The notes beneath the pieces are model-generated. The model was not told the origin of the DNA, ran no database searches, and saw only the letters and a program-made list of their open reading frames with translations. Positions 19,101 through 39,214 of a DNA stretch of 64,000 nucleotides are shown here, piece after piece. The DNA comes from a virus. Lineage: Duplodnaviria > Caudoviricetes. The position numbers were made by a program, and so were the translations under genes. Each line of letters starts with the position of its first letter. Position 1 is the first letter of the stretch. The stretch covers positions 12,349-76,348 of the IMG/VR virus record IMGVR_UViG_3300002835_000122. One strand, written 5' to 3'.

Positions 19101-22100
19101 ATTTCTTTTATATAATTCAAGATCTACCTCTGCGCAAAAGTTGGACATTAGTTGTCCCATACTTGTCATTATGGTGCCGTCTCCAAAAAATGTACTAACG
19201 GGATTTCTTTGGAATATATTTGTTGATAATTTAAATGTTGCTGCATTAGCTGCTCCGCCCAAGTCACCCCGTCCCACATTGGAGTAGGCATTGGAAACAA
19301 CATTTCTCAGTCCATCGGCTCTTTGTTTTTCAACTTCGTTAATTGGTTCATATAGCATTGTGCCGAAGTGTCTAATTCCAAAACGATTCTCGGAAAATAT
19401 AGTTCCATTTGTTGCTCTAGCTAAAGCCTCTCTTGTTCTGGATGCGCCCATGCTCAAAAGCCTAACCATTAAATCTCTTGGTTCAGAAAGATACATTCCA
19501 GTATCTACTCCACCATCAATTTTTCCAGAGTCACCCTTTTTATTTGTTGAGTTAACAATAGCGCCAAGTTCAATTGCGTCAGATTGGGCAGTGACAGTAA
19601 CTATTTCGCCTTCTTCAACGTTGGTTATGACTCCGTTAAACAAAGTTTGCAAAGAATTTGGATTTGATCCATAGCCTCCTCTGAGGTGAACTCTAACTCC
19701 TGGCTTTAATCTTATATTATTAATATCAACTACGTAGTCATTTCTCATTCCTGAGACAATATTTTTAGCTACATTTAAAGTCCTGTCTAAGATAGCGCTA
19801 ATTCCATCCGCATAGCTCAACGGATCGCTATTGAAGTCGTCATTTCGCGCATTAAATATATCTGTAGATGGGCGTGTTGTTAATTTTGAGTACATATTTG
19901 AGACTCTTAATATTAAGGTATCTCCCAGTAAATCTTCAGATGATACAACTGAAAAATCTATAACAGATTGAAGACCATAGAAATTATCAAAAAGTTTGAC
20001 TCCTGCAAACATTCCCCCTTCGTCTATCAGCCATAACATGTAGGTCGGAAATGCTCTAAGCATTCGGCCAGATATGTCTCTGTACTGAACATCATTTAAC
20101 ATCTTTTCCATGTGATTATTAAATGAGCCGTCGTAAGCTTTTTGGTATTCAGACAATGGCTGAGCTCCACTAATTCCAGTCAAAGATTTATCACAACCAA
20201 CGTCTGGAGTTTGCATGTCTTTCGTGTAATTGCTTTCAATTTTTTTTGCGCCATCAGATTCAATTTTAACATTAGTTCCATCTGCTGTCAGATAAAATCT
20301 TCCATTATCTTTATTTATATATCCGAAATGGGACCCCAAAACGGTATACATAATTGCAGGTATCTCTTTAGGGTCATTTACTTCTGGATTAGCTAGTGGC
20401 ATCAAATATATCATTTTATGAAATTCAACTTCGTCTGGATCAAAACTGACAGATTCCTCTTCGGCCAGTTTGCTAGTCGCTAATATAGTTTTAATCATAT
20501 TTTCTGTCGCTGCATTTGTCACCCCCACATTTCCTATGACAAATGGTGATCCATTAATTTCTTCAAAAACTGGGTCCGCCTCAGAGGATTGCGAAGCTAG
20601 AAATAGGTAATCAGTTAACAGAGTACTTTTTGAAACGTCAGCGTTTGCTTCGTTAATTACTTGTTGAAAGATAGAAACAAAATTATGTGGACTAATTCCA
20701 GATTGATTTACGTAATCTATTATTTCGTTAATTAAATCTTCGTTAGTCTGTACTCTTGCGTCTACTGCGGCTGCGTTAGTTGCGTTAGTTACTGAATATC
20801 TTCTAAGGAAATTCCTAACTGTATTTTTTACAGATTCAATTTTTTGTTCAATTGCATCGGCTGATCCCTTAAAGAAGTCATCAGAGCTATCAAAAGTGAA
20901 ATTTTTAGTTAAATCTATCTGGATAGTGGTATTATTTATGATATCGCGATCAAACATTTCAAAACTTCTAAAATAGAAATCTGGATCTAGATTGCCAACG
21001 ATATCTCCTTCCGTATTTTTGACGCCCAATGGAAGGTCTGGATAGGCGTTAAACGATCCCCATAGCTGCTTCATTCTCAGGAAAGGGTTTCTCTTTGTAC
21101 CAAAATGCTCAATCAATTCCGTCTGTTGCTTTGAGGACATTTTTTCTCTTTGCTGTTGGAATATATCAAAGTCCACTAAGCTCAACTGTACTGCATAGAC
21201 ATGAGGAAAGTTGGGTATGGTGTCAACCTTATAGTTAAGGGGAAGAACATATTTGATTCCGCATAAAGCTGTTATGATATTTTTTATTCCTAGAAATCCT
21301 ATAACACCAGTAGAGTGCTCAAGTCTAGCTAACGCATTAGTATGATCAAATACTGATCTAATTTTTAATAATTCTTTTTCGCCAAAAACAGTCATCGATA
21401 TATTAATGTAACTGTCCTTGCCCCCAATGTACTGATAACTTGGTTCGTCTTGCATTTGGATCTGTAGCTTTGCTAGATTATTCCCCATTGATATACTAAC
21501 GCCATTTACTATGGCGGTCTTTGGGTCAAGATCTACTCGATTCATTGGAACTTCCCACTCATTGAACTGGTAGTCTCCATCTTTTAATCTTGTTGCTTCC
21601 ATCATATTTTTGATGAAGCCGTCAGTAAAAAATCTTTCATACAGATTGACCTGAAAGGCTTCAGTAACTTGCTGTGCAATTTTTTCTCTATCTGGTTCTA
21701 CTCCAGCGCTTTGTGTCTGTCTGACAAATTCCTCATCAATAAGTTTTTCCAAAATAGTTCCAGACGAACTAGCTCTTTTGTGAAGTTCTTTTTTGATATT
21801 GTTTAAACTACCCTGAGCTAATATTCCATCAAAAAAGTATGACTCTGCCGTACTAGGGTATTGTTCGAAGTAACCGTTTACTCCCCGAAGTTCTATCTTT
21901 TCTTGATAATCTAAGAACCATCTTTTTTCTTCATTATCTAATCTTGTATTGTTATTAGATATAAACGATTGCGCTAGGTAAAGGTAAACTTTTTTATATT
22001 GATCAGTAGTCGAGATGCCAGCTGTCAAAATATCAATTGCACCTTTAGCCATATTATTGATAGATTTCGGAAAGTTTGATTCGGTAGCCATTGAAGCAAT

Positions 22101-24302
22101 ATCTTTAATATCTTTTATTAAAGGAGTCTCCAAAGTTCTTTCTATTCCAAATGAATTAAGAAGTTTATCCCATAGGCCGGAAGCTGTATCGTTTAATATT
22201 TTTTCTTGTTCACTTCTAAAGGAAGTGTTGTCTGGTAAGAATATTTTTGTCTGTGTCTCAGCCGGAGTAAATAAAGTTATATTACTTCCGTCTCTCCATT
22301 GTGAGATAATATTAGTTGATAACACATCATTTTCAAAAGAATTTTTTCTTTCGAATTCAAAATCTTCCTGCTGTTCCATTAAACCAGATACGTCTACACC
22401 TATATGTGTTCCATAGTCAATCACATCCACGTTAGCTGTGTCCGAAGGCTTATTGTCAGACGTCTTTAATAGGAAGCTTTCATTGACATATTTGTGCATT
22501 TCTCCAGCGGCTTTGCCCATATACTGACGATATTTACCCCAGTGTATCGCCTGATTAAAATCTTTTAACATCGGCAGGAATGGCTTGTGATTAAAGTGGA
22601 CCATTTCCAAATCAATGACTAAAGCAAATGGATAATTTGGAACTGTTGATACTGACATATTGGAAAGTCCAACAGCAGTAATTCCATGTATTGAGTTAAG
22701 GTATTGGTTTTTTATTGGTAATATTGGCGAGTACTTAAAGGCTGCAACCAAACCCCTGAGAGAAGAAAGAAATTTATCTATTTTTGCTTCATCATCTCCA
22801 CCATTTTTGAAGTTAATTGTAAAGCTTTCGTCTAGACTTATTGTTGCCGCGTTGTCTATTGACAAGCCCCATATCTCTTCATAGTTAGGAAAGAAGAGCC
22901 GCATAGAAATAATAGTTTCCTTATAACCTGCGTTAAACTTAGGAGTATTTTTTTGTCTAATAGCTCCACCAGTTAATGATCCTGTTTTGTAATTAGAATT
23001 AACACTAATTGAAATCGGAGGAACGTAGAAATTTGCCGCGCCTAATCGAAGATGAAACATATCTGGTTTTCTAGGTGGAATGTTTTCCCTAAAAGGAAAA
23101 TCTTCAATTGCTTTTTTAATTTGTTGTGCGGTATTTTTTATCTGAAAAGCCAAGGTAAATATTGGCCTATTATCTTTGGTGACTCCAAAAGCTCTTTCTA
23201 AAGATATAATTGCATCGGCTTCATTATTCAGTGTGTCTTCTGATCCACCACCTTGACCGTTATTGGAGTAGTCTCCGACTGCTGCTAGAGCATCAAAGAC
23301 AAAGGTAACTAGGCCTGGAAAATAAAAATTAATTATTGAAAATGATATTGGATCTTTTTGAAGATTATAAACTACTTCACTTAATAATGTTAACCACGGC
23401 GTATCTATTGCCGGATCAATATATTCATCTATTGATCTTTTAACTGTTGCAACACTCTGCAGTCTTTTTTTTGCAAAATTGCTCATTTCATACGCAAATG
23501 ATGCTAGATAAAGTAGTCCTGTAGACTCCAACTTTGAGTAAACGCTTTTTGTTGCATCTTCGTTTAAAGTTGCAACATCGTTGTTGCTATTAGTTGAAAG
23601 AACCCTTAGCGCCTTAATTCTAACTTCTTGACTTGCACTACCCCCTCTTGTGTATTCGAAGAATCCGTCTACTGCAGATTCTACATCCATACTGCTACTA
23701 GCTCTGAATATAAAATTACGAATATTTGCATAAGCTTGATCTTCACTGTAATTATCTTCTAATTCTTTTTCATCTTCAGAAGATCTAGATTGCTCAGCGT
23801 TAGATATTTCAATTAGAACTGTGTCATCAATATCTCTTCCATTTGCAGTGGTATTCCATAGTTGCAATCTGGATAATACTTTACCTGCTAAAAGCTTTGT
23901 GGTATTGGGATAATAGCCAGAGTATGCATAATTTGCAATGAAATGATAGATTACGGCATCTTCGCTGCCTAGATTCGGATTAGGAATGTTGATTGAATTT
24001 TCGACATAAGTATTGTATTCCGGTACGACGATTGATGTCTCCGTAGGTATTCCAAATATAAAAGTAGAAACGGCTATTCTATAGGCAACTAATGAATAGT
24101 TATCGTTTTCACCATACTCAAGAAGGTTTTTACCCTTATATTCATGTACAGCTAAACCACCTGGCGAACCATCATTAAAAAATCGAGATAATTTATCAGC
24201 ACTGGTGCTTGGATCCGATAGTAATTGTGTTACCTCTTCATATAAGCTAGGATGCTCAACAATGTATTTTAGTACATTTTTAGATATTGTATTAATTGCC
24301 AT
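13104..24302 (-). CDS. Giant baseplate hub fusion protein (3732 aa): tube-like domains, gp27/gpD-like hub, DPBB-like insert, C-terminal SNase-like domain
   Basis: Hub motifs RLKPGVRVHLRGGYGSN...LFNGVIT and GELTLIGNPDIRPHDLVYL...FEVEQVVHHF; C-terminal DGDT...VRFDGINTGE...DVFDRVLG...LNWELVANNLA. Confidence 0.75.
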   Translation of the reverse strand: MAINTISKNVLKYIVEHPSLYEEVTQLLSDPSTSADKLSRFFNDGSPGGLAVHEYKGKNLLEYGENDNYSLVAYRIAVSTFIFGIPTETSIVVPEYNTYVENSINIPNPNLGSEDAVIYHFIANYAYSGYYPNTTKLLAGKVLSRLQLWNTTANGRDIDDTVLIEISNAEQSRSSEDEKELEDNYSEDQAYANIRNFIFRASSSMDVESAVDGFFEYTRGGSASQEVRIKALRVLSTNSNNDVATLNEDATKSVYSKLESTGLLYLASFAYEMSNFAKKRLQSVATVKRSIDEYIDPAIDTPWLTLLSEVVYNLQKDPISFSIINFYFPGLVTFVFDALAAVGDYSNNGQGGGSEDTLNNEADAIISLERAFGVTKDNRPIFTLAFQIKNTAQQIKKAIEDFPFRENIPPRKPDMFHLRLGAANFYVPPISISVNSNYKTGSLTGGAIRQKNTPKFNAGYKETIISMRLFFPNYEEIWGLSIDNAATISLDESFTINFKNGGDDEAKIDKFLSSLRGLVAAFKYSPILPIKNQYLNSIHGITAVGLSNMSVSTVPNYPFALVIDLEMVHFNHKPFLPMLKDFNQAIHWGKYRQYMGKAAGEMHKYVNESFLLKTSDNKPSDTANVDVIDYGTHIGVDVSGLMEQQEDFEFERKNSFENDVLSTNIISQWRDGSNITLFTPAETQTKIFLPDNTSFRSEQEKILNDTASGLWDKLLNSFGIERTLETPLIKDIKDIASMATESNFPKSINNMAKGAIDILTAGISTTDQYKKVYLYLAQSFISNNNTRLDNEEKRWFLDYQEKIELRGVNGYFEQYPSTAESYFFDGILAQGSLNNIKKELHKRASSSGTILEKLIDEEFVRQTQSAGVEPDREKIAQQVTEAFQVNLYERFFTDGFIKNMMEATRLKDGDYQFNEWEVPMNRVDLDPKTAIVNGVSISMGNNLAKLQIQMQDEPSYQYIGGKDSYINISMTVFGEKELLKIRSVFDHTNALARLEHSTGVIGFLGIKNIITALCGIKYVLPLNYKVDTIPNFPHVYAVQLSLVDFDIFQQQREKMSSKQQTELIEHFGTKRNPFLRMKQLWGSFNAYPDLPLGVKNTEGDIVGNLDPDFYFRSFEMFDRDIINNTTIQIDLTKNFTFDSSDDFFKGSADAIEQKIESVKNTVRNFLRRYSVTNATNAAAVDARVQTNEDLINEIIDYVNQSGISPHNFVSIFQQVINEANADVSKSTLLTDYLFLASQSSEADPVFEEINGSPFVIGNVGVTNAATENMIKTILATSKLAEEESVSFDPDEVEFHKMIYLMPLANPEVNDPKEIPAIMYTVLGSHFGYINKDNGRFYLTADGTNVKIESDGAKKIESNYTKDMQTPDVGCDKSLTGISGAQPLSEYQKAYDGSFNNHMEKMLNDVQYRDISGRMLRAFPTYMLWLIDEGGMFAGVKLFDNFYGLQSVIDFSVVSSEDLLGDTLILRVSNMYSKLTTRPSTDIFNARNDDFNSDPLSYADGISAILDRTLNVAKNIVSGMRNDYVVDINNIRLKPGVRVHLRGGYGSNPNSLQTLFNGVITNVEEGEIVTVTAQSDAIELGAIVNSTNKKGDSGKIDGGVDTGMYLSEPRDLMVRLLSMGASRTREALARATNGTIFSENRFGIRHFGTMLYEPINEVEKQRADGLRNVVSNAYSNVGRGDLGGAANAATFKLSTNIFQRNPVSTFFGDGTIMTSMGQLMSNFCAEVDLELYKRNIYPGNGTGFAQFLGGDLDDGWSTASSLVEDDGKTLAGQRYLEAGTDRSWNRLITEAQNGSVSSSNTIDSIVEDNKLVSAEGRAGAVKNVLLGGLTAGIAAIPGVNAVAGLAGGGALMGLLRGRGGTNVFRTMGIISPNADDDLSGFDEVSFRAQTYMRTVWDLFQICARLLPNYIVAVRPFEDRSTIFYGKPHWLYTSGVVPVTTGFPSVKKANELDLPGYPKHRSADEDIQMVMDNVNRQANSLADYEAFKRSSELSDFMATLAKDQASSTGIYAPTKRLTGKLLNFNSQLATKRVSKDADGNNIILSQLPVSAGTVKMGFHLPIGGEKTYASITQEHKQIENIPPRFQYPYYTISEDTILDKKSYEVRDGGLFGEYLSDIGGNQASGTSNVVDLLGFGGWLSPLTPIAKIIDSAEDGDSNEARLSNMSKRQNLQERFSEAALKSFSTGGAALSANLIYFLQLEAEFLNEAKITIKPSSGNLELDRPLGFSSLLVTIDSGVSDLISLNKTVYSKMPLPSVYSQNIPTDFQTVNSVVASSGDNKDDFSFEYELSQPISYEEWGSPATKEEEMFYIAMRWPYKPDTVDASLEKFKQVYKFEDLYGSAADYKKRRVLVFSPLTGRAVVCAPAYFLWGEGDDDVDAVVSPDAAWYLGTFVSTIDDKIAADGSQLAESLPAWANILLHDRADTGNSLLEKIEAETGLSTFPRDVDCFFGFVPDDTPLGVVSSAAAPVKRFFNDADKNSYIIGFGNFAIDDNGDANKFTASKTSLDIGNMSQYPADAAERYLKNSDSSLEEYSATNSEVTSYSYEYGGNILASGDNPSYFQAIVDLNYDALDKGELYKRLDAELLTTGNEETGSGRVGFAPVYSAMDGISVEARSFYDENYDPNVSVIAGNGRTLSQAADIWDQFRFGYHTYDSVKAIFTRHYGLDADSTDPFPKEFKRILGASSNTPFQNFSQSTVSIPGLSATDGTGVDELAILLGSDFFNEPDTTTDLGSGVGFSGASSRIEAVEFIRKNYIDYESKGIRGDAGIIQYFNSVISRSLDGIRLNFFESKVINNALSISIENKEDPAAAIKLAEVINTPKQLFLLMVGLFRQKLWSTGYGRAWLVLKPDRKRGIITAGGGGEDGQWSFKPVDKVFEAFISPYSQYSKDESKFLKLLVSTKGEGSNSSTFIGGIDEDIGDFYSANIGPILGAIGDGLSSLLGMFKLSMMQMGYALSEVGNFSKQAHILNKVLNDSIYYSLGRPGSLLRAVDNPFTREYGEPVIEIRQPFQRIHYLSSFSHIISNQIQENLNNVSTVITAVSDGKNPVTVALDKGAPSERQTETTVETGLYYDNMIGSGFLGVLHPFMHPLETFRGYAKTLQGTPDELSARRIALSHLKESIKDIYGGELTLIGNPDIRPHDLVYLSDVYNRMYGIFEVEQVVHHFTSEMGYITTVTPNALVTVNDPSRWFMSSWLHSWLSMQNMRNDTRFYMDNIMASNTGINMGGNISVDALADSLSTQMIGGIQYTHGSSALMKDIMANQTALSLPDKARQEIESKGQGKASGTDTVMQVVGVSVARAVPIVGQLAWKGWTWLRDNVLDQHGCYVQYLNKNGQPMDAGLSYNQGMVVGRYHTKALLPGILGTRTKVKTADGNTFIRSDDLLKSLGWQETEIKDLVRYTDYENALTHARVLSLTGLGPEKANLQTSLFKVIVTVTTFKDGDTFDVEDVISGARFTVRFDGINTGETSLTKVGSIPNEPGADGTTISPISTPGGRAMLYTEAKIKNRVFVLRIKVTNRADTNVIFEAQFEPGATENRLQNYTKDVFDRVLGTVWYYQPESMINQIKDFVNQCFMLNRGKTIVTTDMDNPVTKEFFGKDFPGLGSLYKESPIFIKRSNIFDKIKSLDIQYAPPLSLSISALDDYGIPEQEFNRFYNDLVCFKVLEATYNKVDEWPTIFWDEYYEDGHPVSLNWELVANNLATVYTKQLLIESQSVISAEESALIPKQVTLNPGT

Positions 24303-24311
24303 TGTACTTTC

Positions 24312-24761
24312 CTATTTAAACATCATATTGTTACGAATAATAGTTCTAAGTCTATCACTTGAAGAGTCTTTCATTGTAACAGAAGTATAGTTATCTATTA
24401 TACTAGACTTTGTTTCTGTTTTGAATGAATCTAGAGTAAAATTTTGTTTTTTTGTTTGCAGGTCCTTATTGTACCTAGCTTGCTGATGTCTTTTTCCGCT
24501 ATATCCACTACCATTCATCTGGATATGCGCACTTGGGGCATTGTCTAGTCCCTCTTTGGAATATTTGATTTTGTCAGATTTCCCTGATGCCTGCATTTTT
24601 TGACGCGATTCACCAATCACATTTTGCGATGGGGTTTTGCTTGAGACTATCTTTGCTGCGTATTTGCTTGCCGTTAAGGATCTATGGGACGTATCTTTAG
24701 GCTGTTTGGCAGCAGCGCTTAGGGCTTTATTTTGGTCCTTGACATTTAAAATCATATACAT
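24312..24761 (-). CDS. Small basic hypothetical protein (149 aa)
   Basis: Fills the gap between two large genes on the coding strand; K/S/Q-rich. Confidence 0.6.
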   Translation of the reverse strand: MYMILNVKDQNKALSAAAKQPKDTSHRSLTASKYAAKIVSSKTPSQNVIGESRQKMQASGKSDKIKYSKEGLDNAPSAHIQMNGSGYSGKRHQQARYNKDLQTKKQNFTLDSFKTETKSSIIDNYTSVTMKDSSSDRLRTIIRNNMMFK

Positions 24762-24767: not shown

Positions 24768-27700
24768 TTAATAAGATCGGGCCATCGATTGATATGGGTC
24801 TCTTGCCACATCCGGGATTCTATTATACATAGTACTGTTAATGTTCCCATTAGTGAGTCCTGATGCTGCTGCACTAAATTTTTGTATTTGATCTCTATCG
24901 CCAAATAAGGAAACCTTATAATTCATGCCCGCAGTAAAACCTTGACCTCTTGCCTGCGGAATTTCTGACAATCTTTTTGGATAGTCAGACTCATAGGCTG
25001 ATCCTCCTGGCAAAAGCGGTGGACCGGACATGGCTTCCTGCGTATGATCTTTTTTGTTTTGATATAAAAAGCTAGCTGCTACAGCTATTCCAGTAGCTAT
25101 CGCTGCATTGCGAACTCCGGGTTTAGCAAACTGCTCTGCTAGATATTGTTTGTTCATTCTTTTGTACATTGATTCCGAGGCAGTTGATTTCTTTACTTTT
25201 GACAGATCTCTGAGAGTATCTGCAACAACTCCAGGAGTTGTTTCTGTTATATCATCTGCGGATTTAAGAATATTACTTGAAGCTAAATCTCCGTTTAAAA
25301 AGGCTGCAGCTTCCTTATCCAGCTGTGCATTTACTTCAAATATAGTTTTATTTTTTAACGCTCTAGCTATTTGCTGCTCGTCCATAGAGCCTGGTCCTTG
25401 ATCAACTTTACCTTTTATAAGTGATGAAATAACGGAAGAATTATTGTCTGTTCCAAAAAAGCCATCTGCAAAATCTAGGTCCAATACATCTTCCATAATA
25501 CCTGCTTTTTGGGCGTTGGACAATCGATTTTGAGTAAAAATATCATCAATATATTGTCTTAGTTGAAGGTTCTTAGTTGACTTTTCGTATGTAGCCTTTT
25601 GTTCTGACATTTTCATATATCTACTAAGGAGATTAAGGCTTTCATTGTCTATATTTGTTGATGCGTCTGGAAGTTTTGTAAAAAACTCTGGAGCTATTTT
25701 TCTTTTTAATCCGCCATATTGAAGGGCGCTAGTCATTTCGTACCCAGATATGCCCATTGATTTTTGAACTTGTTGAAGATTCTCTAGTAAATTAGTTCCC
25801 AATTCTACTTTTCTTATTTCTAATGCTACTCTCGATGCCTCTGGAGCGAAGCCACTTTCTATCTCGTCAGCTAAACTTTGCACTGCTTTTATTCCTGCTT
25901 GATTTTCGTCTAATATTTTTTCTGCTGCAATTCGTGATCTTTCACTTGTTCTAGATATCAGTTCTTGTTCTTGGGTGATCTGGGCATTTCGCCCTAGTCT
26001 CGCCATTGCTTCTAAATAATAGTTTGAAGTATTAGCTACATCTATTATTTTAGAAAGAGAACCTTTGGCTATAATTCCTCTAGCTCTTAGGACTTCTTCT
26101 ATCTTCTCATATTGCTTAGATGTTACGGCTTCATTAATATCGGTCAAGTCTGCAGTGTTATCTGCTTCAAACATTCCTGCTGATAGCTCTTCTGCGAAAT
26201 TTATAAGATCATTTTGATTCATTTTTCCACTAACTAAGAGGGCTTCATCTAGTATGAGTTCAGCGCCGTGTTTTTGTTTTAAATAGCCAAACATTTTTCC
26301 ATACTGTTTTATTGTTTTGTCGCCAAAATCATTTAGGTTAGTTTCTTTTCCATACAATTCTTCTAGTACTTTTGCCCCTAAGTTTGGATCCATGTTCGCA
26401 AGCTTGGTAGTTTCTTGCAGTAGCATTCGTCCAGATGTAAAAGTTTGTGTCATGTCAATGACGGTTTCAGCTGGAGTAAAAGCTAACATTAGCTTCTTAC
26501 TTATTAGGTCTTGTTGTATGCCAGGAATTGTCCCTAGTATATCTTCCATCTGCCTAAGGCCATGTCCGACCACAGTAGCTCTATTAATGTACTGTCCAAG
26601 GATATTTGTATTTTCTATTGCTGAGTCAATGCTTTTACTTATGAAGGTCTTTCCTAGTGCAGATTGCAGTTGCTCCGGGCTAATCTTTAATGCATTGACT
26701 GTATCGTAAAACTTTTTTGATAGGTCTTTTATCTGATCTTGAGATATAGAGCTTCCGCTTCTTAATCTGTTTAATTCTTTTGTCATTTGTTGAAGTTGAC
26801 TTTTTTGCGATCCACTTATTATGCCCTCTAGGCCTGATAAGACTTCTTCTTCGAGTGGCATTTCTGCCACTTTTGCCACTAGCCTCTGGAACCCAAGTGA
26901 CATTAGTCCTGGATCTTGGTCACCTAAAGCGATTAATTTTGTTGCAGAAAGATTCTCTATTCTATTTTCGCCTGATTTTAATACTCCCAGTTTTTGAAAA
27001 AAGTTTCTATTGAAATCTCGCATGATTCCGCCGCTTAATCGATCATTAACATCAATGGTCAGTTGTTCTAGTCTATCCATCATCTTTTCATTAAAGAAAT
27101 CGTCTGACATGCCCATCTTATGAGTTAATGGGTTGATTCCTTGAAGCGAAGTGGATAACAGTTTGTATTTCTCATCTTCTTTAGCCATCTCATTTAAAGT
27201 CTTCATAAAGAATCTATTGCCACCAAATATTTCACGATAGCTTTCTATATCTTCAAATCTAGTAAGGCCGATAACTTCACCCATTGAAGTAGGTTGACGT
27301 ACCATAGCGGCACCTAGTCTGCGCTTACCTTCGGACATATATGTACCCAATATGGGCAATCCCTTATCGTCTAAGTCGAAACCACCAAGTGCGTGATAGA
27401 ACTTTCTAATATCATTTTCGTGGAATAAAATATTGTGATTAGAAACTCTAAACTTTACGATATCGGCAGAGATTTCATCACCAGCTTCACCTATTTTTAC
27501 ACCCATCATTGGCTTTCCTGACAATATCCTTGTTCTGTCGATATCAATTGACTTTCCTGATAGCGTCTTTCTTCCGGTGGTTCCAGTCATTGCATTTGCT
27601 TCCGAGTTAAGAGCAAATCTGTACACATCACCAACCACTGGAAGTCTTTGTCCATTTTTTGTCTTATACAACTCAGCTTCATAGTATTTTTTTAATAGGT

Positions 27701-29549
27701 TTAAATATTCTGGAGAATCATTAATGCTTATGCCACTTCTATGTAGATCTAAAATTCTTTGCGCAAAGTCTCTGTTTAACATTTTTGAAAATTGTTGAGG
27801 TTCCGTAAAGTGTTCTATGTCTTGTTGTGCTAGCTGCTTGATTCCTTCCAAAACCTTGCTGTCATCCGTCAATCGACCAGTTTCCAATATACCCCTAAAC
27901 TCGTTAAGCACATTATCTCGATAGGCTTGAGCCAGTTTCATATCTTCTGTGTTTCCAAATATTGCATCATGGAAAGCGGCGAGCATTGGGTCCATGTATA
28001 CTCTAGAGGTGGATTCAGCTAATCCGCTTAGATTTAAGACAGGAGTACCAGCTGCTATTCCTGTGTCTTTCTTTAGTCCACTAATTGATGTTATGATTGC
28101 ATATTTATCAAATCTTTTTGAAAAATTCTGAAATTGAGCCGCTGACTTTCCGGAATAGTTTGTTCCCCCAATTTCCACAGAACTTCTAACCGTAACCTGA
28201 GATAAACCTATAGCCTCTCCGTCTTTTCCTATCTTTAGCTCAGACAACTGCCTTCTTAATTCAACTTTACGAATCATTGACGCTTCATCTCTACTATTAT
28301 CTAGGCTCTCCAATTCTTTTTTTATGGCTAGCCTAAGATTCGCTCCATGCCTTATGTTTATTAGAGATGAACCATCTCGACCTTTTTCTAATTCATCCAG
28401 TAGGCTCTTAATGACTTCTTGTGTATTACCATCATATTTTTCTGAATTCTTTAAGAACTCTTTCATTTTACTAGTGCCGAATACTCCCTCGGCTGCGTCT
28501 AAGTTTCCATCTCTAATAGTCTCCGTCACAAGATCTCTTAATGAATTATTTATTTTATTAAAATCTAAACCTGACATACTTTTTTTACGTGATTCAATTA
28601 TTTCCTTTAATACTTCATCAACATAACTTTTTGCTTCTTCAACTGCTGTTCCGCCACCCTTATACTGAAAAGATTCTTTCATAAATGCTCTTACGTCAAA
28701 TTGTTTTGTTCCATCGGCAAAGTTCTTAGCGGTGTCCTGATCAAAACCTAAGGCTATTGTCTCAAAAACACTGTCCATAGCAAGAGTTGCTTGTGAGAAT
28801 TCTTTGGCTATATCTGCAGACGCAGTAGACATAGGCTTACCCAGGAAAGACTTCATAAGGTCTCCGGCTATGGAAATATCTCTTGTAGAAAGAATGCCCT
28901 TTAATCTTTTTGGAAGCTTTGCAAACAGTTTAGATAGCCCTGCATTTCCGCCTCTCAATGCCTCTTCTAGTTCGTCTGGAGTGAATAGAGGTCTTCCGCC
29001 TTTGGACATTGCTTCTAGGGTTTCCTCCATTGATAATATTCGATCACCCTGGCGAAGACTAAGTGCCATTCCACCCTCATCAGTAGGAAATATTAATCCA
29101 GCGTTTTGATTTTTCATGTCCTGAAGGAATTTTCCAATACTTGTAGAGCCAGCTTCTGCTTTATGAATTTTGATTTGAGCACCGTATTGCTGATCTCCAG
29201 TCAACTTTAGTGCTTCATTAATATCCATGAGCACCTGCCCGTAACCCCTGTACGTGGAAGGGCCAAGAGTTCCTGGCTCAATGTTTACCATTTCGGTCAA
29301 TCCAAAGCTAGATACATACTCCGCAACCTTTTCTATTGAATCGGATATGAACTGTGCTGATTGGCCTGCCTTTAGCCTTAGGGGGTCAAAGTAGGTTGAT
29401 TTAAATTTTAACTTTCCGTCAACATTAACAACTTCTATCAATCCCTTTTGGCCAAGATAGCTTTTACTTAAAGCCTGTTTGGCTAAAAGTAATTGTCTCT
29501 CCATTGGCATGGGAGATAGGTACGACTGAATATAATCAGATACAGACAT
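24768..29549 (-). CDS. Putative virion-associated two-barrel RNA polymerase-like protein (1593 aa)
   Basis: RDGSSLI (aa ~391), VTVR...GK...IITSISGLK, GGFDLDD (aa 722-728), RQPTSMGE (aa 751); start overlaps the stop of the tape-measure-like gene; hydrophobic C-terminal segment. ORF certain, function inferred. Confidence 0.55.
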   Translation of the reverse strand: MSVSDYIQSYLSPMPMERQLLLAKQALSKSYLGQKGLIEVVNVDGKLKFKSTYFDPLRLKAGQSAQFISDSIEKVAEYVSSFGLTEMVNIEPGTLGPSTYRGYGQVLMDINEALKLTGDQQYGAQIKIHKAEAGSTSIGKFLQDMKNQNAGLIFPTDEGGMALSLRQGDRILSMEETLEAMSKGGRPLFTPDELEEALRGGNAGLSKLFAKLPKRLKGILSTRDISIAGDLMKSFLGKPMSTASADIAKEFSQATLAMDSVFETIALGFDQDTAKNFADGTKQFDVRAFMKESFQYKGGGTAVEEAKSYVDEVLKEIIESRKKSMSGLDFNKINNSLRDLVTETIRDGNLDAAEGVFGTSKMKEFLKNSEKYDGNTQEVIKSLLDELEKGRDGSSLINIRHGANLRLAIKKELESLDNSRDEASMIRKVELRRQLSELKIGKDGEAIGLSQVTVRSSVEIGGTNYSGKSAAQFQNFSKRFDKYAIITSISGLKKDTGIAAGTPVLNLSGLAESTSRVYMDPMLAAFHDAIFGNTEDMKLAQAYRDNVLNEFRGILETGRLTDDSKVLEGIKQLAQQDIEHFTEPQQFSKMLNRDFAQRILDLHRSGISINDSPEYLNLLKKYYEAELYKTKNGQRLPVVGDVYRFALNSEANAMTGTTGRKTLSGKSIDIDRTRILSGKPMMGVKIGEAGDEISADIVKFRVSNHNILFHENDIRKFYHALGGFDLDDKGLPILGTYMSEGKRRLGAAMVRQPTSMGEVIGLTRFEDIESYREIFGGNRFFMKTLNEMAKEDEKYKLLSTSLQGINPLTHKMGMSDDFFNEKMMDRLEQLTIDVNDRLSGGIMRDFNRNFFQKLGVLKSGENRIENLSATKLIALGDQDPGLMSLGFQRLVAKVAEMPLEEEVLSGLEGIISGSQKSQLQQMTKELNRLRSGSSISQDQIKDLSKKFYDTVNALKISPEQLQSALGKTFISKSIDSAIENTNILGQYINRATVVGHGLRQMEDILGTIPGIQQDLISKKLMLAFTPAETVIDMTQTFTSGRMLLQETTKLANMDPNLGAKVLEELYGKETNLNDFGDKTIKQYGKMFGYLKQKHGAELILDEALLVSGKMNQNDLINFAEELSAGMFEADNTADLTDINEAVTSKQYEKIEEVLRARGIIAKGSLSKIIDVANTSNYYLEAMARLGRNAQITQEQELISRTSERSRIAAEKILDENQAGIKAVQSLADEIESGFAPEASRVALEIRKVELGTNLLENLQQVQKSMGISGYEMTSALQYGGLKRKIAPEFFTKLPDASTNIDNESLNLLSRYMKMSEQKATYEKSTKNLQLRQYIDDIFTQNRLSNAQKAGIMEDVLDLDFADGFFGTDNNSSVISSLIKGKVDQGPGSMDEQQIARALKNKTIFEVNAQLDKEAAAFLNGDLASSNILKSADDITETTPGVVADTLRDLSKVKKSTASESMYKRMNKQYLAEQFAKPGVRNAAIATGIAVAASFLYQNKKDHTQEAMSGPPLLPGGSAYESDYPKRLSEIPQARGQGFTAGMNYKVSLFGDRDQIQKFSAAASGLTNGNINSTMYNRIPDVARDPYQSMARSY

Positions 29550-32500
29550 TATCTAACACCGGCATTAATATCAATTTGCTCCGATCCAAAAGGATTCATA
29601 ACTGGAATAACAGACCCTGATACTCCCATGCCACTCATGAGTGATCTCAATCTTGATGCGGTGTCTGTTTGAGATCCAGATCCACCACCAAATCTAGGAT
29701 AGCTAGGATTAGATAAACTAGCTTCTTGTAGCTGTTGAGGATAGTAACCCATTTGCGACATTTCTAGACCCATACTTTGACCAATTTTTATTTTAACTTG
29801 ATCCATACTAGTGTTTGGGTGCCAACCCTCCCAGCTTTCATCTGGTAGTTCATGTCTAGCAAAGTAGTCACTTAACTCTGGCCTCTTCTCTACATCCATA
29901 CCCCAGGCTGCTTCATATATTCTTCTTTCAAGCCTTCCTGCTGTATCTAATATTCTTTTTCTTTCCTCTACAGGAGCATTAATCATAGCTTTAAAATGTT
30001 CTCTTTTTCTTTTGGGTATAGATAGAGAAAGCGATTCTATATCAGTTCCATATTTACCTGAATTTATATCTTCTATTGGAGCGCCGTACATTGTTCTCTT
30101 AGCGGCTGATTCATACTGGAAGGCTGCTCCTTTATCTCCAGCCATGTTAGCCATCTTAGCTAATCTAGTATTTTTAGTATAATTTAAGATGTCTGCGTAT
30201 TCTTCGAGCGCAAGTTCTTTTTTTCTAGTTCTAGGCATAAACTGTTCTCCAGTGATGGCCTCATTCGCTGAATGAAATGATGAGACGGTAAGCCCTGTTA
30301 TCGCTCCTAATGTGGACATCACCAATTTACCCTTAGAGGTTTCTCCAAAAAATGAACCAGCTACTGCTAAGGTTGCCGTTGCAGCTATCGGGTTTCTATT
30401 TGCAGCCTTATTTATCATGGGTTCTATAAAGCTTTCGAATGGCCTTTGCCATTCCGGGAAGGTTGCCCCGTATACGTTATTTCTTTCCCAATCCTCAGTC
30501 GCAGTTTGTTTGTTTATAAACTTCTTATTAATAAAAGTATCTCTATGGGCCAGCATTTCGCCCATCCTGCCAAGAGCGTGGAGATTTGGATTAATGCCCA
30601 TTTGCTCTGGAGTACTATTCTTGTATTTATATTCAGTAAATTCTTTTTTCTGTTGTAATGACGCTGCTCGTTCTCTGAGCTCTTGAACCTTTAATCTATC
30701 TGCGGGGCCGTCCACCATCGAGTCTATGGTTTTATCTAGTGATCTGAATTGCTTGGAATACGGGGCAACATCGCCAAGTATCTTGTATTGATCCATAATT
30801 CCATAACGACCAGAGGCGTCAGAGCTAAGTCTATTTAATCTTTCGTAAGCTACTCCAGGTAGTCTTAGTTCCCCTTCTGGGACTTTTGCAAACGGGTCAC
30901 CTGTAGTGAAATCGGTAAAATATTCTGATCCAGGAAGAAATGGATATTGTCTTCCCATCGTATTTTTAATTGGGTTTATATAATCAACGCCAGATCTTTC
31001 TTTAGGTATAAATCTTCTTGTTATTTCAGAAAACTCTATAGAACCTATTTGACCTCCACCTAACATGGGAACGTCTCCTAGGCCTCCTAGATTCAGATCC
31101 CAGAATTGTCTTCCAGTTCCATATGCCTTAGAAGCTGATTGTAGTACTGATCTTTGAGGTGTAAAATCTCTTTGGCCTAATCCAAAACTTTCTCGCATAC
31201 TGCTTGCTGCGAAACCATAAATTCCTAACATTTCTTGAGCTCTGTACCCAAATTCTTGTGCTTGGATTTGCGGATTGCCAACACTCAACGGACTGCCAGC
31301 GGGTACGATTCGTTGAGGCATGATTCCAGGTACTTTAGGTGGGCCATAAGCCATCTGCATGTATTGATTATTTATTCCTGATATTGTATTTCTAGTTTCA
31401 TTCCTTGCCGTGTTAAGAGATCCAGCCCTTCCGGCTAACATTGCGTTAGAAGACGCCTGTGCGCCGTTTGGAGGGCCTCCAAAGCCACCCATGGCCATTC
31501 CACCAGCGACTCCGCCCATACCGCCGAAAACGCCACCTCTACCACTAATGTATGGATCTGCATTGTATGCTCCAGATTGACCGGCTGGCACATAATTAGC
31601 TAAGCCGGCTGCTACTTCCTGCTGGTGCATCATTGTTTGAGGTTTTAATATTTTGCCGACAGTAGCATTTAAGGCTGGAACAAGCGGTCCGAATGGTCCA
31701 CTGAAATATTCGCCCGATACAGGATATGGTCTATCTTCAAAATGCTTCCGCTCATAGCGATATGGATCAAATGGTCTAAGCGGAGAAATGTCAGTATGGA
31801 ACAATGCTCTTTCTATTGGGCTCCCCATATTATCTGAGGTAAACATTGCTCCAGCTTCTAATTTTCTGTATATACTTGGGCGGTAATACATAATTTTTCC
31901 ACCCATAAATGGAGTATTGCCTAACGGCCAAAACCGACCTTGTCTAATGGCGACTTCGCCCTCAAATAATTGTTCTTTCTTTTCTTCAAAATTCATTCCA
32001 CCGGGAGTAATCCCAGAACCAAGAGCTTGTAAATTTCCTACTGCTTTAGCAGCTCCGCCGATGAAGAATGGCGAGTAAACTCTTTCTCCTCTATCATCCT
32101 TTTCGTTTACCATGCCACCGATAGTTCTGTCAGCCGTCATTATCCCTAGGCCAGCGCCATATAGTGGCAGAACTCTTTTGGTCACCATTCCACTTGTAAA
32201 TAAGCTTAAGGGAGAACCATATTGTGAAACATCAAGTTGTAGGCCAATGGTTCCAAAGTATTTATTTAACCTATCAATACTATGTGACACTGCTGTGGAT
32301 GCACTGGAGTAGCTTTCTCGGCTACTGTAGGTGTTAATGCCTGTAACACTTTTCAGTGCGCCTAGTGGATTTCTAGCAAAAACGGTTCCAAAAGTTGGAA
32401 CTAAAAGAGCATCAGAGCCTGGGCCCATAGATGAACCAAGAACGTCAGTAGCTGATTCCGATATTCGGTAAGGTGATGTGCTAAGTCTTGGGTATAATGC

Positions 32501-35500
32501 TTTTTTAATTAATCCAGACTTTCCCACTTCTCCTATTCTTTGTGAGGTTCCAGTAATGAAAGGATCTAGTAAACCTCCAGCACCTTTGTCTCCAGCTTCT
32601 CTGAGAACATCTGTGGCGTTTCTTAATGCACCTCTTTGTACTGCTAATTCACTCAGCCCAGCTTTATTAGCTCTCATGGAACTTAAGTTGAATAATGTTG
32701 AGAGTCCGGCAGCTTGTGCTTCTGCTAGTTGACCAGGTGGCAGCTGTTTAGCCATTGAGGTAATAATTTCATTCATCTGAATAAAAGTATTAGAAAAATT
32801 TCGCCCTGCTGCACCGGCTGAGCTCGATGCCAATAGCTCATTTCTTTGAACTAGATATTTATATATCTCGTCTTTAAGTGCATCTTCCCTTGTTAATATT
32901 GATGGGCTTGTCGATCTGATATGAGATCCCGAAAGTAAGTCATCTTTTTCTAAAAGCCTTCTAACTCTTTCGCCCATTTGATATAGGGTCTGAGTTTCGT
33001 AACCCATCTTTCCTATTGTTGAAGCGTCGTGCTTTGCTGCCTGAAGCACATCGTGAGCAAACTTCTGAGTATCTTGAATATTATTAAGTGAAGAAACTCT
33101 TCTACCATTGAACAATCCTATGCCGGCATCCTCGAGGCGCGTCATTATTTTTCTAGGCATTGCGCTCTTAAAAGATTGTTCTCTGAAGTTTTCAAATGCC
33201 CTTAGCATTTGTCCTTCGGTGATCATTTCCTGCTTAGTTCCTGGAGACACAGCTGTAGCTGCGCCAGTATCATCTGCAAAGTTTAATTTGAACTGCTTGC
33301 CTTTAACTTCCACTGTTTCGTTTTTAAGAAGGCGCGCAAAAAAAGCTGGGTTTTCTGGATCAGTTTTTCTTTTTGCAAATCTCGACAGCATCCGGCCTAT
33401 TGAATTGGGTTGCTCATAATCAATGTCAAATCTCTGCCTGAGAGCCAGTTCTCTTTCTGGGCTAACTCCAAGCCTCTTTAGTAGATTTGATCTATTTTTT
33501 CCATCAGCAAATTCTATTTCGTTAAGCGACTTAGCCTTACGCTCTGAGGCTGCATTTCTAGCAGACCTCGAAAGCATTTCGTTACTTCTTCTTGAAAGTG
33601 GCCTGTAGAAACCTTGTAGCTCCTTTGCTTCGAATTCATCCGTAAGCGATCCCTGCTTAAAGGCCATTACATTGCTTTTACTTTTACCTCCACCATATGA
33701 TAAAAAGAAGTCTGCGCCTTCTTCTCCCTTGGGAAGGAAGGGTTGAGATATCTTGCCCTGTTGTATTTGAAAAAATGTGCGTCCTGACATTTCATCAAAC
33801 GAACCCTTTCCAAACATTCGTGCTGGATTAAAGTTAACTATAGGAATCTTTAAATCATTGGCTAAAAAGTTGCCAACGTTTGATACAGATTCTTTTAATC
33901 CAGAAAAATCTAATACATTTCCAGATCGAGTAGTATATATTCCTTTCATTACGGAAACGCTAGATGATGTAGTCGTCGGATCCGCTAAGGCCATCCTCTT
34001 GGAAATTTCACCAAGTGCGACTTGTTCTTCTGCCCTGAGACCTGTAAATAGACCTTTGCTAACTCCCTCGTCTAGAGTCATAGCTTTCAGGCCAAATACA
34101 TTAAAACCGCTACTAAATATACCTGTACTTATTTGTTTTTCTCTGACCAAAAAACTTCTTAGGCCATCCAAATTGTCGGTATCTAAACCTCTTTTTCCTA
34201 ACCTTTCAGCCAGTATTGCGTTAGATACCTCTCTGCCATTTGCATCCTTTAAATTAATACCTAATCTTTGTGCTGATCTTTTAATTAGAAAATCTTTTTG
34301 GGAAACTGATAGATTATTTAAGTCCGCAAAGTCTTCGAAGTTGGCTTTTTTAGTTTTTAGAACTTTTGCTGCTGCTCGAGGAATTCCATTTTCTAGTAAA
34401 GAGTTCCATCCCTTTTGTGCCTTTGACATTATTGCGGCTTGAAATTCTTTTCCTTCAAATATTCTATTAGTATTTTCTATAGATGTTTTCAGGGCGTCTG
34501 TACTAAGAAAGCCTCCCTCAATCGGATCATCTACTGTTGTTGAAAATCTTTTTAATATTTCATTAAAAGCGTCATCGCCTTCTTTGATGATTTTAGTTTT
34601 GCCAATAGTTACTTTTCTGCTAGTTTCCGTAGCTGAACTACTAACGCTTATGTCATCTATAAATTTTTCTAAAGTTTCAGAAAATTTCTGTCGATTAGAA
34701 TTAGGTGCTAAGTCTAATATTTGCCTTTGAAGTAGCCTCTTATATTCTAACTGCTCTATTGACCTATGGAACTCCGAACCACTGAACGACTTACTGCCGA
34801 CTCCCCCGTCTCCTAGAGTAGCTATTCTATTAGCTAGTTTAGACGTTCCGCTGGAAAAGTTTGCCTGCACCGTCTTTATAATGCCCGTTAGATCATCAGA
34901 TGTCATGCCATCTTTACGTAGTGCCCCGCCCTTACGTAGTGCTTCATCAAAGCTTAACGCTTTATTTACTACGTCATATCCAATTCCAGTTTCTCTGAAT
35001 TTATTTACACCCTGATTGACTGCTCCGCCAATCCCTCTTAGTCCGGGTATTAAATCTACATAACCAAAATTGCCATCTGCTCCATCGCCAAATGCTAATC
35101 TTCGACCAAATATGGCAGCCCTTTTTAGGGTATTATCATCAGCAGAGTTTGCTAAGGCCTCTCTAGCTTTAGAGTTTCTTACGCTATGCAGGATTTGATT
35201 TATATTGGGTCGTTCTTGATAATACTTAGCAGTTGCTGCTCTAATGCCTGCTGAAGTTTGAGAAGAAACTTTTAAAGCCTGGTTTGTTATTTTGCCTAAA
35301 TCATGACCAACCTCTCCAAGAATATCATCTAAGTCAGTAAATCTCTGAGCTGCTTTTGTCTTAAAGGAACTAACCCCAGACGACCTTGCGACATCTCCCA
35401 TCGATTGTCTAAAGTTATGAAGAGATGATCTTGCGTTACCTGCTGCTGCACCGGCTGCCTCAAACGGCAGTATCATTGTAGCTAAGGCTATTGATGATTC

Positions 35501-37490: not shown

Positions 37491-38432
37491 CTACCTTCTC
37501 TGTAAATTGCCCACTGTAGATGTCGTTGTTGCCGCAGCTGCAGCTGCTTCTGCTCTTGCAGAAAGGTTAGAGACCACGCTAGATTTAACAAACGAAATGT
37601 TGCTTTCGGTGAAGTAGTGATCTCTTGCCATGAATTGGTAACTTTCGCCAATAGGCTGACCACCCGGCCCGTATGCTATTGACATATTTGTTAAATTTAC
37701 TTCCTGTATAACTATCTTCATGGGCTTAGTGATTCCATCCGAATTAACGGTTCTTTGATTGACATCAGAAATCATCATTCTGTCTATGTTGTCGGAAATA
37801 TTAGTATCTTCGGATTGATATACATTTAATGGAGACAGTGCCACTTCTTCCAATCCATATACTATAATTAGATTGAATGGTGGATGGGCGCTAAATATAT
37901 TTCTGTTGGAATTTTGTATATTCTTAGCAAAGGGATCATCTGTCATTCTGTCTAGCTGACCTCTAGCCCAATACTTCTCTACTAACTTTTCTTCTTCTTC
38001 TGTTTCAAAACTAGATCTTAAGTCAGATATTGTTCCATTAGTTGAACCGTTTTTTCTTTCCGTAAGAGCCCTAACAGCGGCTGCTTTTTCTAAAAGCTCT
38101 GTCATTCGTCTTGGATACTTGGAAAACATTGTTATTTCTCCGGTAATAATTCTAGTGCCGTACATCATAGCATCGTAGTTATAGGACCAGAATCCATATA
38201 ATGGCTGCTTTTCTTGTCTTACGTTAAAAGCAAAATTGGCAATATCTAGTTCATCTTCAGGGGAGAATAATCCGTCGATATATATTCGGATATCTTCTCC
38301 GCTGAAATAATAATCATAATAATTACTAAAGCGTAGATCGCCCTGTTTTCCGCCACTCCATACGGCATCTATTGTTCCATGAAGTGGGTCAAATTCTCTT
38401 ATTTTGTTATTGTCTATGTTTCTAATTGTCAT
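37491..38432 (-). CDS. Tail tube-like protein, paralog 3 (probable tube initiator)
   Basis: YFSGEDIRIYI...NVRQEKQPLYGFWSY...GTRIITGEI resembles the other two tube genes. Confidence 0.7.
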   Translation of the reverse strand: MTIRNIDNNKIREFDPLHGTIDAVWSGGKQGDLRFSNYYDYYFSGEDIRIYIDGLFSPEDELDIANFAFNVRQEKQPLYGFWSYNYDAMMYGTRIITGEITMFSKYPRRMTELLEKAAAVRALTERKNGSTNGTISDLRSSFETEEEEKLVEKYWARGQLDRMTDDPFAKNIQNSNRNIFSAHPPFNLIIVYGLEEVALSPLNVYQSEDTNISDNIDRMMISDVNQRTVNSDGITKPMKIVIQEVNLTNMSIAYGPGGQPIGESYQFMARDHYFTESNISFVKSSVVSNLSARAEAAAAAATTTSTVGNLQRR

Positions 38433-39214
38433 TCTGGAGGCTTTACCTGAGTTGTATTATTTTCGTTCTTTTTAGGATTATATTTCTTTTCATAGTATTC
38501 TTCTTCATTTAAGGAAGCTAGCTCTTCTACTATAAGATCGCCAAATATATTTGAACCAATATTTAAATCTCTTGATTTCATTGCCTGTGTATATGTCGGA
38601 TCAGTGGGCACTAAACTATCATTCGGCATCTTGATAAGTGGCTGGATTCCTCTTGCCATATATGTATATGTCTGCTCTGTTATCAAGTCATCTATGGATA
38701 GTGTTTGACCTTCGTCAACTATAGTAACTCCAAAAATTTTCATCTTAGCCCCAATTCCATATTCATTAAAAAATGTAATGACAATATCGAATGGTGGCAA
38801 CATATCTGCAAGCGGAGCAAAAAAGCCTTGCTTCCTGGCTAGGTATTCTCTAAACTGCTTTATTCTATAGAAAGCATACTCGTTAAAAACGGTAAATATT
38901 AAACTTCCGGCAATCGTTCTTCCACCCTTAACGAAACCCCTGACATTTACATGGCCCAATGTTCTTATGGGGGAGTTCTCTCTGTGTATAGAGTATGAAA
39001 TAGTTTGAAGTTCACCGAGAGTTATTACGTCGCCGACAGCTTCAACGTTACCTGTTTTACCTATCACTGGAACTATCATAGTCGCTACTGCGTCTGCTCC
39101 AGAGAAGGACATATTTGACATGTATTTATCAAAGTCGAATAAGTCAGTACCAGCGTTTTCTTTATTCTCTTCTTTTTTTGTCAACTTAAAAGGGAATGTT
39201 TGCCCTCGTGTCAT
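38429..39214 (-). CDS. Tail tube-like protein, paralog 2
   Basis: SFSGADAVA...GELQTISYSIHRENSPIRTLG...RTIAGSLIFTVF...ADMLPPFDIVITFFNEYG, clearly similar to 39287..39949. Confidence 0.8.
   Translation of the reverse strand: MTRGQTFPFKLTKKEENKENAGTDLFDFDKYMSNMSFSGADAVATMIVPVIGKTGNVEAVGDVITLGELQTISYSIHRENSPIRTLGHVNVRGFVKGGRTIAGSLIFTVFNEYAFYRIKQFREYLARKQGFFAPLADMLPPFDIVITFFNEYGIGAKMKIFGVTIVDEGQTLSIDDLITEQTYTYMARGIQPLIKMPNDSLVPTDPTYTQAMKSRDLNIGSNIFGDLIVEELASLNEEEYYEKKYNPKKNENNTTQVKPPE

Follow-up and report, generated by a model that had tools for sequence, protein, structure and literature searches.

Does a long gene in the tape-measure position of a phage tail module encode an RNA polymerase that enters the host together with the DNA? 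The question is raised by P1 (P0001), an open reading frame (ORF) of 1593 amino acids (aa) with an ATG start on the minus strand (24768-29549) of the stretch of DNA analysed here. This stretch, the window, comprises 64 kb of the 76,348-base IMG/VR virus record IMGVR_UViG_3300002835_000122, and all of its long ORFs lie on the minus strand. Since CheckV rated the record as 36% complete, a genome size of about 200 kb is estimated. An earlier note made from the bare sequence had proposed P1 as a candidate virion-packaged single-chain two-barrel RNA polymerase (RNAP). The analysis presented here points in the same direction, and P1 very probably harbours the two-barrel core of a polymerase, its active site intact though unusual. 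In the combined reading, to which a probability of roughly 0.7 is assigned, P1 is a tail-carried and delivered single-chain two-barrel polymerase, most likely a DNA-dependent RNAP, that starts the transcription of the phage. The phage would then probably inject its own transcription enzyme.

Candidate active-site motifs and predicted fold of P1

All four motifs that had drawn attention to P1 were recovered from its translation. RDGSSLI occupies aa 391-397 (28359-28379, minus strand as all features below) and, extended by one residue to RDGSSLIN (aa 391-398, 28356-28379), contains D392-G393. In the first barrel, D392 is a candidate for the fourth catalytic Asp, as judged from conservation, the aligned range of QDE-1 and a profile alignment (hhalign) to the paralog P3 described below. 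VTVR...IITSISGLK (aa 452-493, 28071-28196) falls into the predicted strands of the first, beta-like barrel (aa 452-508, 28026-28196, model residues 73-129) with R455, K468 and K493. The region of the second, beta-prime-like barrel (aa 628-765, 27255-27668, strands at model residues 249-386) holds both GGFDLDD (aa 722-728, 27366-27386), a candidate metal-binding loop of the form D-x-D-D according to conservation and the alignment to P3, and the conserved RQPTSMGE (aa 751-758, 27276-27299) with an R-x-P...E arrangement after the Asp loop.

P1 had no match in Pfam (E ≤ 0.1), PHROG or, by phmmer and profile searches, among the PDB sequences, and tblastn against 50,697 phage records (INPHARED) gave none either. 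The ESM Atlas returned only scores of 0.81-0.85, a level often reached by shuffled proteins. Homologs were found among uncharacterised proteins: a word-indexed search gave 38 proteins down to 25% identity, and an HMMER scan run without filters on 1.84 billion representatives yielded 125 clusters at 50% identity, 113 of them at E ≤ 1e-10. The family occurs at 68 distinct IMG/VR loci. Its members are 110-1993 aa long, mostly 1550-1750 aa; no fused form above 1993 aa appeared in the HMMER scan, and no separate search aimed at longer forms was made. The guess that standard annotation would overlook such a protein proved right, as every source that names a member of the family calls it a 'hypothetical protein'.

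Conservation was counted in an alignment of 130 family representatives at 50% clustering, reaching down to approx. 20% identity, with the rows that have a residue at the position as denominators. The acidic and RQP motifs, on whose conservation the earlier note had staked its proposal, are kept throughout: none of the 126 rows lacks D725, D727, D728, R751, P753 or E758, and G722 is seen in 126 of 127. The lysines of the first barrel, which it had also named, are hardly less constant (K493 in 119/120 and K468 in 99/103 rows). In the same part of the protein, D392 was found in 112/113, G393 in 113/113 and R455 in 110/115 rows, and D520 in 115 of 123 with Glu in another seven. The Asp loop reads [FY]D-x-DD in every row with residues there and never D-x-D-x-D; its commonest form, LGGFDLDDKG, is shared by 72 rows. 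The motifs of P1 are far beyond chance.

The fold was predicted twice. Model 1 covered aa 341-1000 (660 residues, 35 sequences) and had a predicted local distance difference test score (pLDDT) of 71. A search independent of Foldseek was filled with three-helix bundles matching residues 553-620 of this model, with QDE-1 at rank 19. Because that search was uninformative, the shorter polymerase-like core (aa 380-870, 26940-28412, structure model m38f8ca978807) was folded with a deeper alignment of 65 sequences picked from the 130-sequence alignment. The resulting model 2 reached a pLDDT of 88 and a predicted template modelling score of 0.86. It shows two beta-barrel regions rather than the all-helical structure that would have contradicted the proposal.

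When model 1 was compared with the PDB by Foldseek, all ten best rows were QDE-1 or maize RDR2, followed by the P23-45-type gp64 and by phi14:2 gp66. For model 2, nine of the ten best rows were again these enzymes, with E between 0.07 and 0.6. The matches take in both barrels and the connector and are collinear with the polymerases over 240-300 residues; phi14:2 gp66 (PDB 6VR4) matched the core weakly over 296-298 residues. In BFVD, the best three matches of model 2 were uncharacterised proteins of uncultured phages (E 5e-9 to 2e-7), and ranks 4-6 were giant proteins of crAss-like phages (E 7e-4 to 7e-3). These fold scores are moderate, and their weight comes from the fact that an unbiased search singled out one class of enzymes, with no other match above background. 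P1 is predicted to carry on one chain a beta-like and then a beta-prime-like barrel that align, by range, with known members of the two-barrel superfamily. Three invariant acidic residues stand on the loop of the second barrel, and the first barrel offers a basic pair (K468 and K493) and an Asp for the second metal (D392), the equivalence to QDE-1 being given by range. Muralytic double-psi barrel enzymes and archaeal PolD were considered as well; neither was among the 50 structure matches listed.

In the row of the QDE-1 chain 7y7t_A, residues 3-358 of model 2 are aligned with chain residues 701-1023, and the second barrel region of P1 lies within the aligned QDE-1 range 700-1030. The DLDD loop of P1 is placed within approx. 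three residues of QDE-1 D1007-D1011, since DLDD is found at model residues 346-349 and D1011 lies 12 residues before 1023. By the same ranges (model residue 3 = QDE-1 701), D392 (model residue 13) comes to lie near D709, which is described as a first-barrel Asp that helps to hold the second metal; the roles of K743, K767 and D1007/D1009/D1011 of QDE-1 are taken from the same account (PMC9508822). K468 and K493 of P1 are 25 residues apart, compared with 24 for K743 and K767 of QDE-1. In model 1 (pLDDT 71), the aligned range extends beyond the barrels, where members of the superfamily have a bridge helix and a trigger loop, and brings helices of P1 alongside QDE-1 as far as residue 1161-1169, by range only.

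The predicted active site differs from the textbook arrangement in two respects. The earlier note had given a scheme of R-x-P followed by DxDGD, and this scheme failed for P1, which has DxDD and carries its R-x-P (R-Q-P) 23 residues after the Asp loop. In QDE-1, the ribose-contacting residue R962, part of the 'Pro-gate' loop, is reported 45 residues before D1007 (PMC9508822), and gp99 of the Bacillus phage 0305phi8-36 has RSPLIH approx. 45 residues before its DTDGD. At the canonical R-x-P position, P1 has a variable loop modelled with low confidence (model residues 291-296). The arrangement may reflect a permutation or a functional loop that was relocated. As P1 neither matches the PF05183 profile nor shows the DxDxD signature in its literal form, it is filed as a variant of the two-barrel superfamily outside any described family.

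Two polymerase-like paralogs in related phages

Near-complete relatives of the phage (G001, G002 and G003; completeness 92-100%) encode two further proteins of this kind. A motif scan and a hidden Markov model (HMM) of the P1 core revealed P2, one ORF of 855-877 aa in each of the three genomes with HGG[HM]DEDD followed by RSPNGxGEY; the core HMM found it at E 1e-4 to 2e-3 among 669 ORFs. The profile of P2 (214 word-index matches in its family) in turn found P3, an ORF of 880-913 aa, at E 6e-14 and 3e-18. Across the 61 proteins of the P3 family, D484-x-D486-G-D488 is invariant and represents the canonical DxDGD, and D220-G221, K270, K293 and RSPN are invariant as well. P2 and P3 had no Pfam match and no match among PDB sequences.

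Profile-profile alignments connect the three families. P2 and P3 were aligned over 528 columns with a probability of 99.85 (E 9e-31), P1 and P3 over 306 collinear columns with a probability of 89.9 (E 1.7e-6), and the comparison of P1 with P2 gave P 0.0075 over 243 columns. In the alignment of P1 with P3, D392-G393 is paired with D220-G221, R455 with R261, K468 with K270, K493 with K293 and R-x-P with R-x-P, while D725, D727, a gap and D728 stand opposite D484, D486, G487 and D488. Because DxDD is paired with DxDGD and the gap falls opposite the Gly in both the P1-P3 and the P2-P3 alignment, the loop of P1 is read as a one-residue deletion of the universal motif. The post-loop position is occupied by RSPNGxGE in P2 and by RSPNGPGG in P3, so that, judged by sequence, all three families share an R-x-P that follows the loop. 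P1 is approx. 700 residues longer than its paralogs and has a conserved C-terminal module (aa 1509-1593, 24771-25025, starting with GPPLLPGGSAYE) that is missing from both. Within the 85 residues of this module, the segment G1509-E1520 (GPPLLPGGSAYE) is invariant in 19 of 19 sequences. At one related locus (L072), the C-terminal module of P1 alone matches, with 48% identity.

P2 is present at full length in seven of 25 related contigs, and its profile had matches in all four records that are at least 90% complete; the match in one of these records (G008) is P2 alone. The P3 stretch was found in G002 and G003 only, among the matches listed. In the closest long relative (G005), whose P1 is 80% identical, the contig ends within an ORF (G005:C1:112529-113674) that weakly matches the P2 profile at both barrels (E 8.5e-5 and 3e-4). 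This ORF is probably the P3 of that lineage, truncated where the contig stops. Pfam PF08719 was found in two proteins of the P3 family (P0302 and P0303; 1041-1062 aa), in which the polymerase paralog is fused to an extra domain. One source names such a PF08719-bearing member 'ribA/ribD-fused uncharacterized protein'.

Position of P1 in the tail module

The closest cultured relatives of the portal protein (54016-55692) are those of Bacillus phage 0305phi8-36 and its kin with 33-36% identity, and 0305phi8-36 (34% identity) is the nearest cultured relative of the phage. In the direction of transcription, the portal gene is followed by the genes for the major head protein (49317-50381), the tail sheath (39976-41214), two tube-like paralogs, three small proteins, a 2212-aa protein, P1, a 149-aa protein, a 3732-aa protein and the baseplate wedge. 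The 2212-aa gene (29549-36187) is a homolog of gp145 of 0305phi8-36 (blastp E 1e-46, collinear pieces) and the 3732-aa gene (13104-24302) a homolog of the baseplate hub gp147 (blastp E 3e-24; phrog_20474, E 2e-118). Flanked by these two homologs, P1 lies in the slot of gp146. According to the record of 0305phi8-36, its tail block consists of chaperonins, gp145 (virion protein, mass spectrometry), gp146 ('hypothetical tape measure protein', virion protein, mass spectrometry) and gp147 (baseplate hub).

The ORF of P1 was said to overlap the stop of a tape-measure-like gene. The overlap is real and amounts to one shared base between the TAA of the 2212-aa gene and the ATG of P1 (...agaTAATGtct...). 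The description of that upstream gene has to be corrected, as it is a homolog of the virion protein gp145 and not of the putative tape measure gp146. P1 itself is unrelated to the protein in whose slot it lies: its profile finds no homolog in the whole 0305phi8-36 record, none of gp145, gp146 and gp147 scored above zero with hmmsearch --max, and gp146 has neither a DxDD nor a DxDxD motif.

The order tube, tube, 313 aa, 184 aa, 209 aa, gp145-like, P1, 149 aa and hub is kept in all 68 related loci wherever the flank is present. The three nearest neighbours of P1 were found in 65, 60 and 58 of the 68 loci; the conserved 149-aa gene between P1 and the hub (24312-24761), which has no Pfam or PHROG match, follows P1 in 60 of 68. 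In G003, the only record with terminal repeats (209.7 kb, completeness 100%), the P1 homolog (G003:C1:61627-66507, minus strand) is in four pieces, with one TAG and three TAA stops inside two of them, and the giant tail genes are also fragmented in the ORF calls. The broken gene could be due to an assembly error, to frameshifting or to a real split gene.

Two further observations concern the neighbourhood. The hub gene is approx. twice as long as that of gp147 (1903 aa), and the gp147 matches are scattered over aa 416-3184, which indicates large insertions. Two neighbouring paralogous genes that follow the sheath gene closely downstream (38429-39949, minus strand; 261 and 220 aa) are assigned to phrog_9206, 'major head protein', with E 3e-42 and 3e-52. 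By position, they look like the tail tube and its paralog (gp140 and gp141 of 0305phi8-36), and the PHROG label looks wrong.

Proposed role of P1 and alternative explanations

From the predicted fold, the conserved residues, the paralogs and the gene order we infer how P1 may act, including its catalysis, template, packaging, ejection and timing. P1 would be synthesised alongside the tail proteins, travel in the tail and enter the host along with the DNA in order to start phage transcription. In the first barrel, D392, R455, K468 and K493 would hold the 3' end of the RNA and the phosphates of the nucleoside triphosphate. In the second barrel, D725, D727 and D728 would bind the catalytic Mg ions on a loop that is one residue shorter than DxDGD, and R751-x-P753 on the hairpin after this loop may stand in for the R-x-P of the 'Pro-gate', which senses the ribose and is placed before the loop in other enzymes of the fold. 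In complete relatives, later transcription would pass to the non-structural paralogs P2 (approx. 860 aa, DxDD) and P3 (approx. 880-915 aa, DxDGD), as gp64 follows gp96 in Thermus phage P23-45. Carriage of P1 in the virion, for which its place between homologs of proteins detected in virions by mass spectrometry and the strict synteny speak indirectly, is probable, and transcription of the early genes by P1 is favoured with somewhat less assurance. A more far-reaching picture is tentative and, on balance, doubtful: a large clade of uncultured phages with contractile tails and genomes of approx. 200 kb might run a host-independent cascade of three paralogous single-chain two-barrel RNAPs, the first of which, a protein of the tape-measure slot, would be threaded through the tube and transcribe at the membrane as the DNA enters, with an active site rewired to DxDD and a moved R-x-P.

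Several results weigh against these proposals. No Foldseek match to the PDB reached E ≤ 1e-3, the best being 4.6e-3 for model 1 and 0.068 for model 2. By sequence, P1 resembles neither a solved chain nor gp96, gp66 or gp99; hhalign of the P1 family against P23-45 gp96 (aa 327-1124), phi14:2 gp66 and 0305phi8-36 gp99 gave E 0.38-0.68 (gp99 0.68). The loop is DxDD, without the literal D-x-D-x-D signature of the superfamily, and R-x-P stands on its opposite side. The correspondence of D725/D727/D728 to QDE-1 D1007/D1009/D1011 and of D392 to D709 rests on aligned ranges and on hhalign to the paralogs. The record of the window, a fragment of approx. 36% completeness, holds neither P2 nor its region, and the multi-polymerase picture is for this reason drawn from relatives at 24-35% identity. 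The hydrophobic C-terminal segment, which had been counted among the features of the protein, does exist as its most hydrophobic stretch (aa 1478-1496, 25062-25118, GVRNAAIATGIAVAASFLY), but it is weak. Its Kyte-Doolittle mean over 19 residues is 1.22 and stays below the membrane-helix cut-off of 1.6, so that a membrane helix is not established. Finally, the promoter-like array of TTATGACTAG described below was found in one of five records only, with no forward copy in G000, G001, G002 and G004.

The slot of the putative tape measure gp146 leaves room for P1 as a tape measure or a tail-lumen or pilot protein whose active two-barrel domain serves another purpose, such as replication priming, RNA-templated RNA synthesis of the kind QDE-1 can perform, or DNA pulling. 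The closest structural matches, QDE-1 and RDR2, are described as RNA-dependent or dual enzymes (PMC9508822), and the approx. 720 residues beyond the core, including the conserved C-terminal module, are unexplained; aa 871-1000 of these are helical in model 1. However, the characterised virion polymerases that were compared all transcribe early genes (PMC10770324; 10.1101/2020.03.07.982082), and the two additional paralogs encoded in the non-structural block are in line with a cascade of transcription. This explanation is regarded as rather unlikely. Either P1 or its 2212-aa neighbour may be the tape measure of the phage. P1 occupies the gp146 slot; no tape-measure profile of Pfam or PHROG matched it, and its tape-measure-labelled neighbours in the ESM Atlas scored 0.81-0.83, below the lead threshold of 0.9. 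Gene position alone is no proof of packaging, and P1 might be an active polymerase whose gene simply lies in the tail operon, the protein being unpackaged and acting as a late, non-virion enzyme. Its place between two virion-protein homologs is strictly kept in 68 loci, though, its start is coupled to the upstream gene, and it exceeds P2 and P3 by the approx. 700 residues and the C-terminal module noted above, which makes an unpackaged enzyme improbable.

The remaining explanations deny P1 a polymerase activity. A two-barrel domain that has lost its catalysis and persists in a tail protein for structure or DNA binding would agree with the non-canonical DxDD and with the variable, low-confidence loop at the usual R-x-P position. 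Yet three Asp, R-x-P, Glu, two Lys and the Asp of the first barrel recur in 96-100% of approx. 100-126 rows down to approx. 20% identity, which would not be expected of a dead domain, and P2 keeps DxDD in a stand-alone protein of polymerase size; such a relic is considered very unlikely. Double-psi barrels with a conserved Asp also occur in muralytic enzymes, and tail-lumen proteins often carry lysins, which suggests a cell-wall enzyme of the RlpA, MltA or '3D'-like lytic transglycosylase type. This assignment is hardly credible, as the structure matches span both barrels and the connector in collinearity with polymerases, the residue set of a Lys pair and an Asp triad is that of polymerases, and the paralog P3 has DxDGD.

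The system functionally closest to a tail-delivered P1 is that of P23-45, where, as described by Chaban et al. 2024 (PMC10770324), the virion carries an active RNAP, gp96 (PDB 8H2M and 8H2N), in fusion with the tape measure, and gp64 (P74-26 gp62) is the non-virion paralog of gp96. For gp96, activity and presence in the virion have been demonstrated, while both are proposed for P1. The two proteins share no sequence similarity: gp96 has 5002 aa, the canonical DFDGD and comes from a siphovirus, while P1 has 1593 aa, DxDD with R-x-P after the loop, and comes from a contractile-tailed phage of approx. 200 kb. The relatives carrying P1 have two extra paralogs, P23-45 one. Structurally, QDE-1 and plant RDR2 (PDB 2J7N, 7Y7P, 7EU1 and 7W84; PF05183) are closest, but these are cellular, dimeric enzymes with slab, neck and head domains, QDE-1 has DYDGD with R962 45 residues before it, and P1 has no PF05183 match. 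phi14:2 gp66 (PDB 6VR4), with its weak structural likeness to P1, is reported as a virion-packaged single-chain two-barrel RNAP for early genes (10.1101/2020.03.07.982082). 0305phi8-36 gp99 (ABS83659.1) is like P1 in class, being described as a YonO/RdRP-like single-chain two-barrel RNAP (PMC7824862). In contrast to P1, its gene is next to the terminal repeat and not in the tail block, its entry in the record is without a virion-protein note, it has RSPLIH and then DTDGD, and it shows no similarity to P1. In the same phage, gp145 and gp147 are the homologs of the neighbours of P1, with the unrelated gp146 in its slot.

To our knowledge, virion-delivered RNAPs are known from few phage groups, and only that of the thermophile siphovirus P23-45 has been tied to the tape measure. 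Full-text literature searches, which did not cover supplementary lists of RNAP families (e.g. the 23 families of Chaban et al.), found no published description of a tail-module DxDD polymerase. If the P1 family is active, the injection of polymerases through contractile tails would be widespread, given its 125 clusters and 68 distinct loci. The catalytic loop, long taken as a universal DxDxD, would then tolerate a one-residue deletion together with a relocated R-x-P, with a bearing on the two-metal site and on ribose selection in all cellular RNA polymerases, and screens for DxDxD motifs would miss whole polymerase families. The trio of P1, P2 and P3 with its one canonical member offers a natural experiment on the shortened loop.

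Other polymerases were searched for in the five records G000-G004. The profiles PF00623, PF00562, PF00940, PF05183 (at E ≤ 10) and sigma-70 region 2 gave no match in them, and no gp99 homolog was found there. The controls for the beta, beta-prime and sigma profiles were positive. For the T7-type profile, the negative is uninformative because its control gave no match.

Promoter-like elements were seen in the relatives. In G003, 11 same-strand copies of TTATGACTAG lie within G003:C1:136937-148784 (L082-L083), with a T-run in front of every copy and, frequently, a GC hairpin. Most copies are located in intergenic gaps, 50-100 nucleotides (nt) upstream of small genes, and the last copy is 63 nt upstream of P3; their downstream flanks are varying inverted repeats. 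The array resembles the terminator-promoter cassettes of early regions and is taken as a lead, not as evidence. A k-mer enrichment analysis of G001 and G002 showed no cluster comparable to it. A different element, TTACTATAT with overlapping words, was the most enriched 9-mer upstream of genes, structural ones included, in the three distant relatives G001, G002 and G003. In the window it is not enriched: three matches were counted where 1.29 are expected, and a count of three is reached by 16 of 100 shuffles. TTACTATAT may represent a middle or late promoter element that these phages share, and one copy in the window (52883-52891) is located in the gap upstream of a 544-aa gene.

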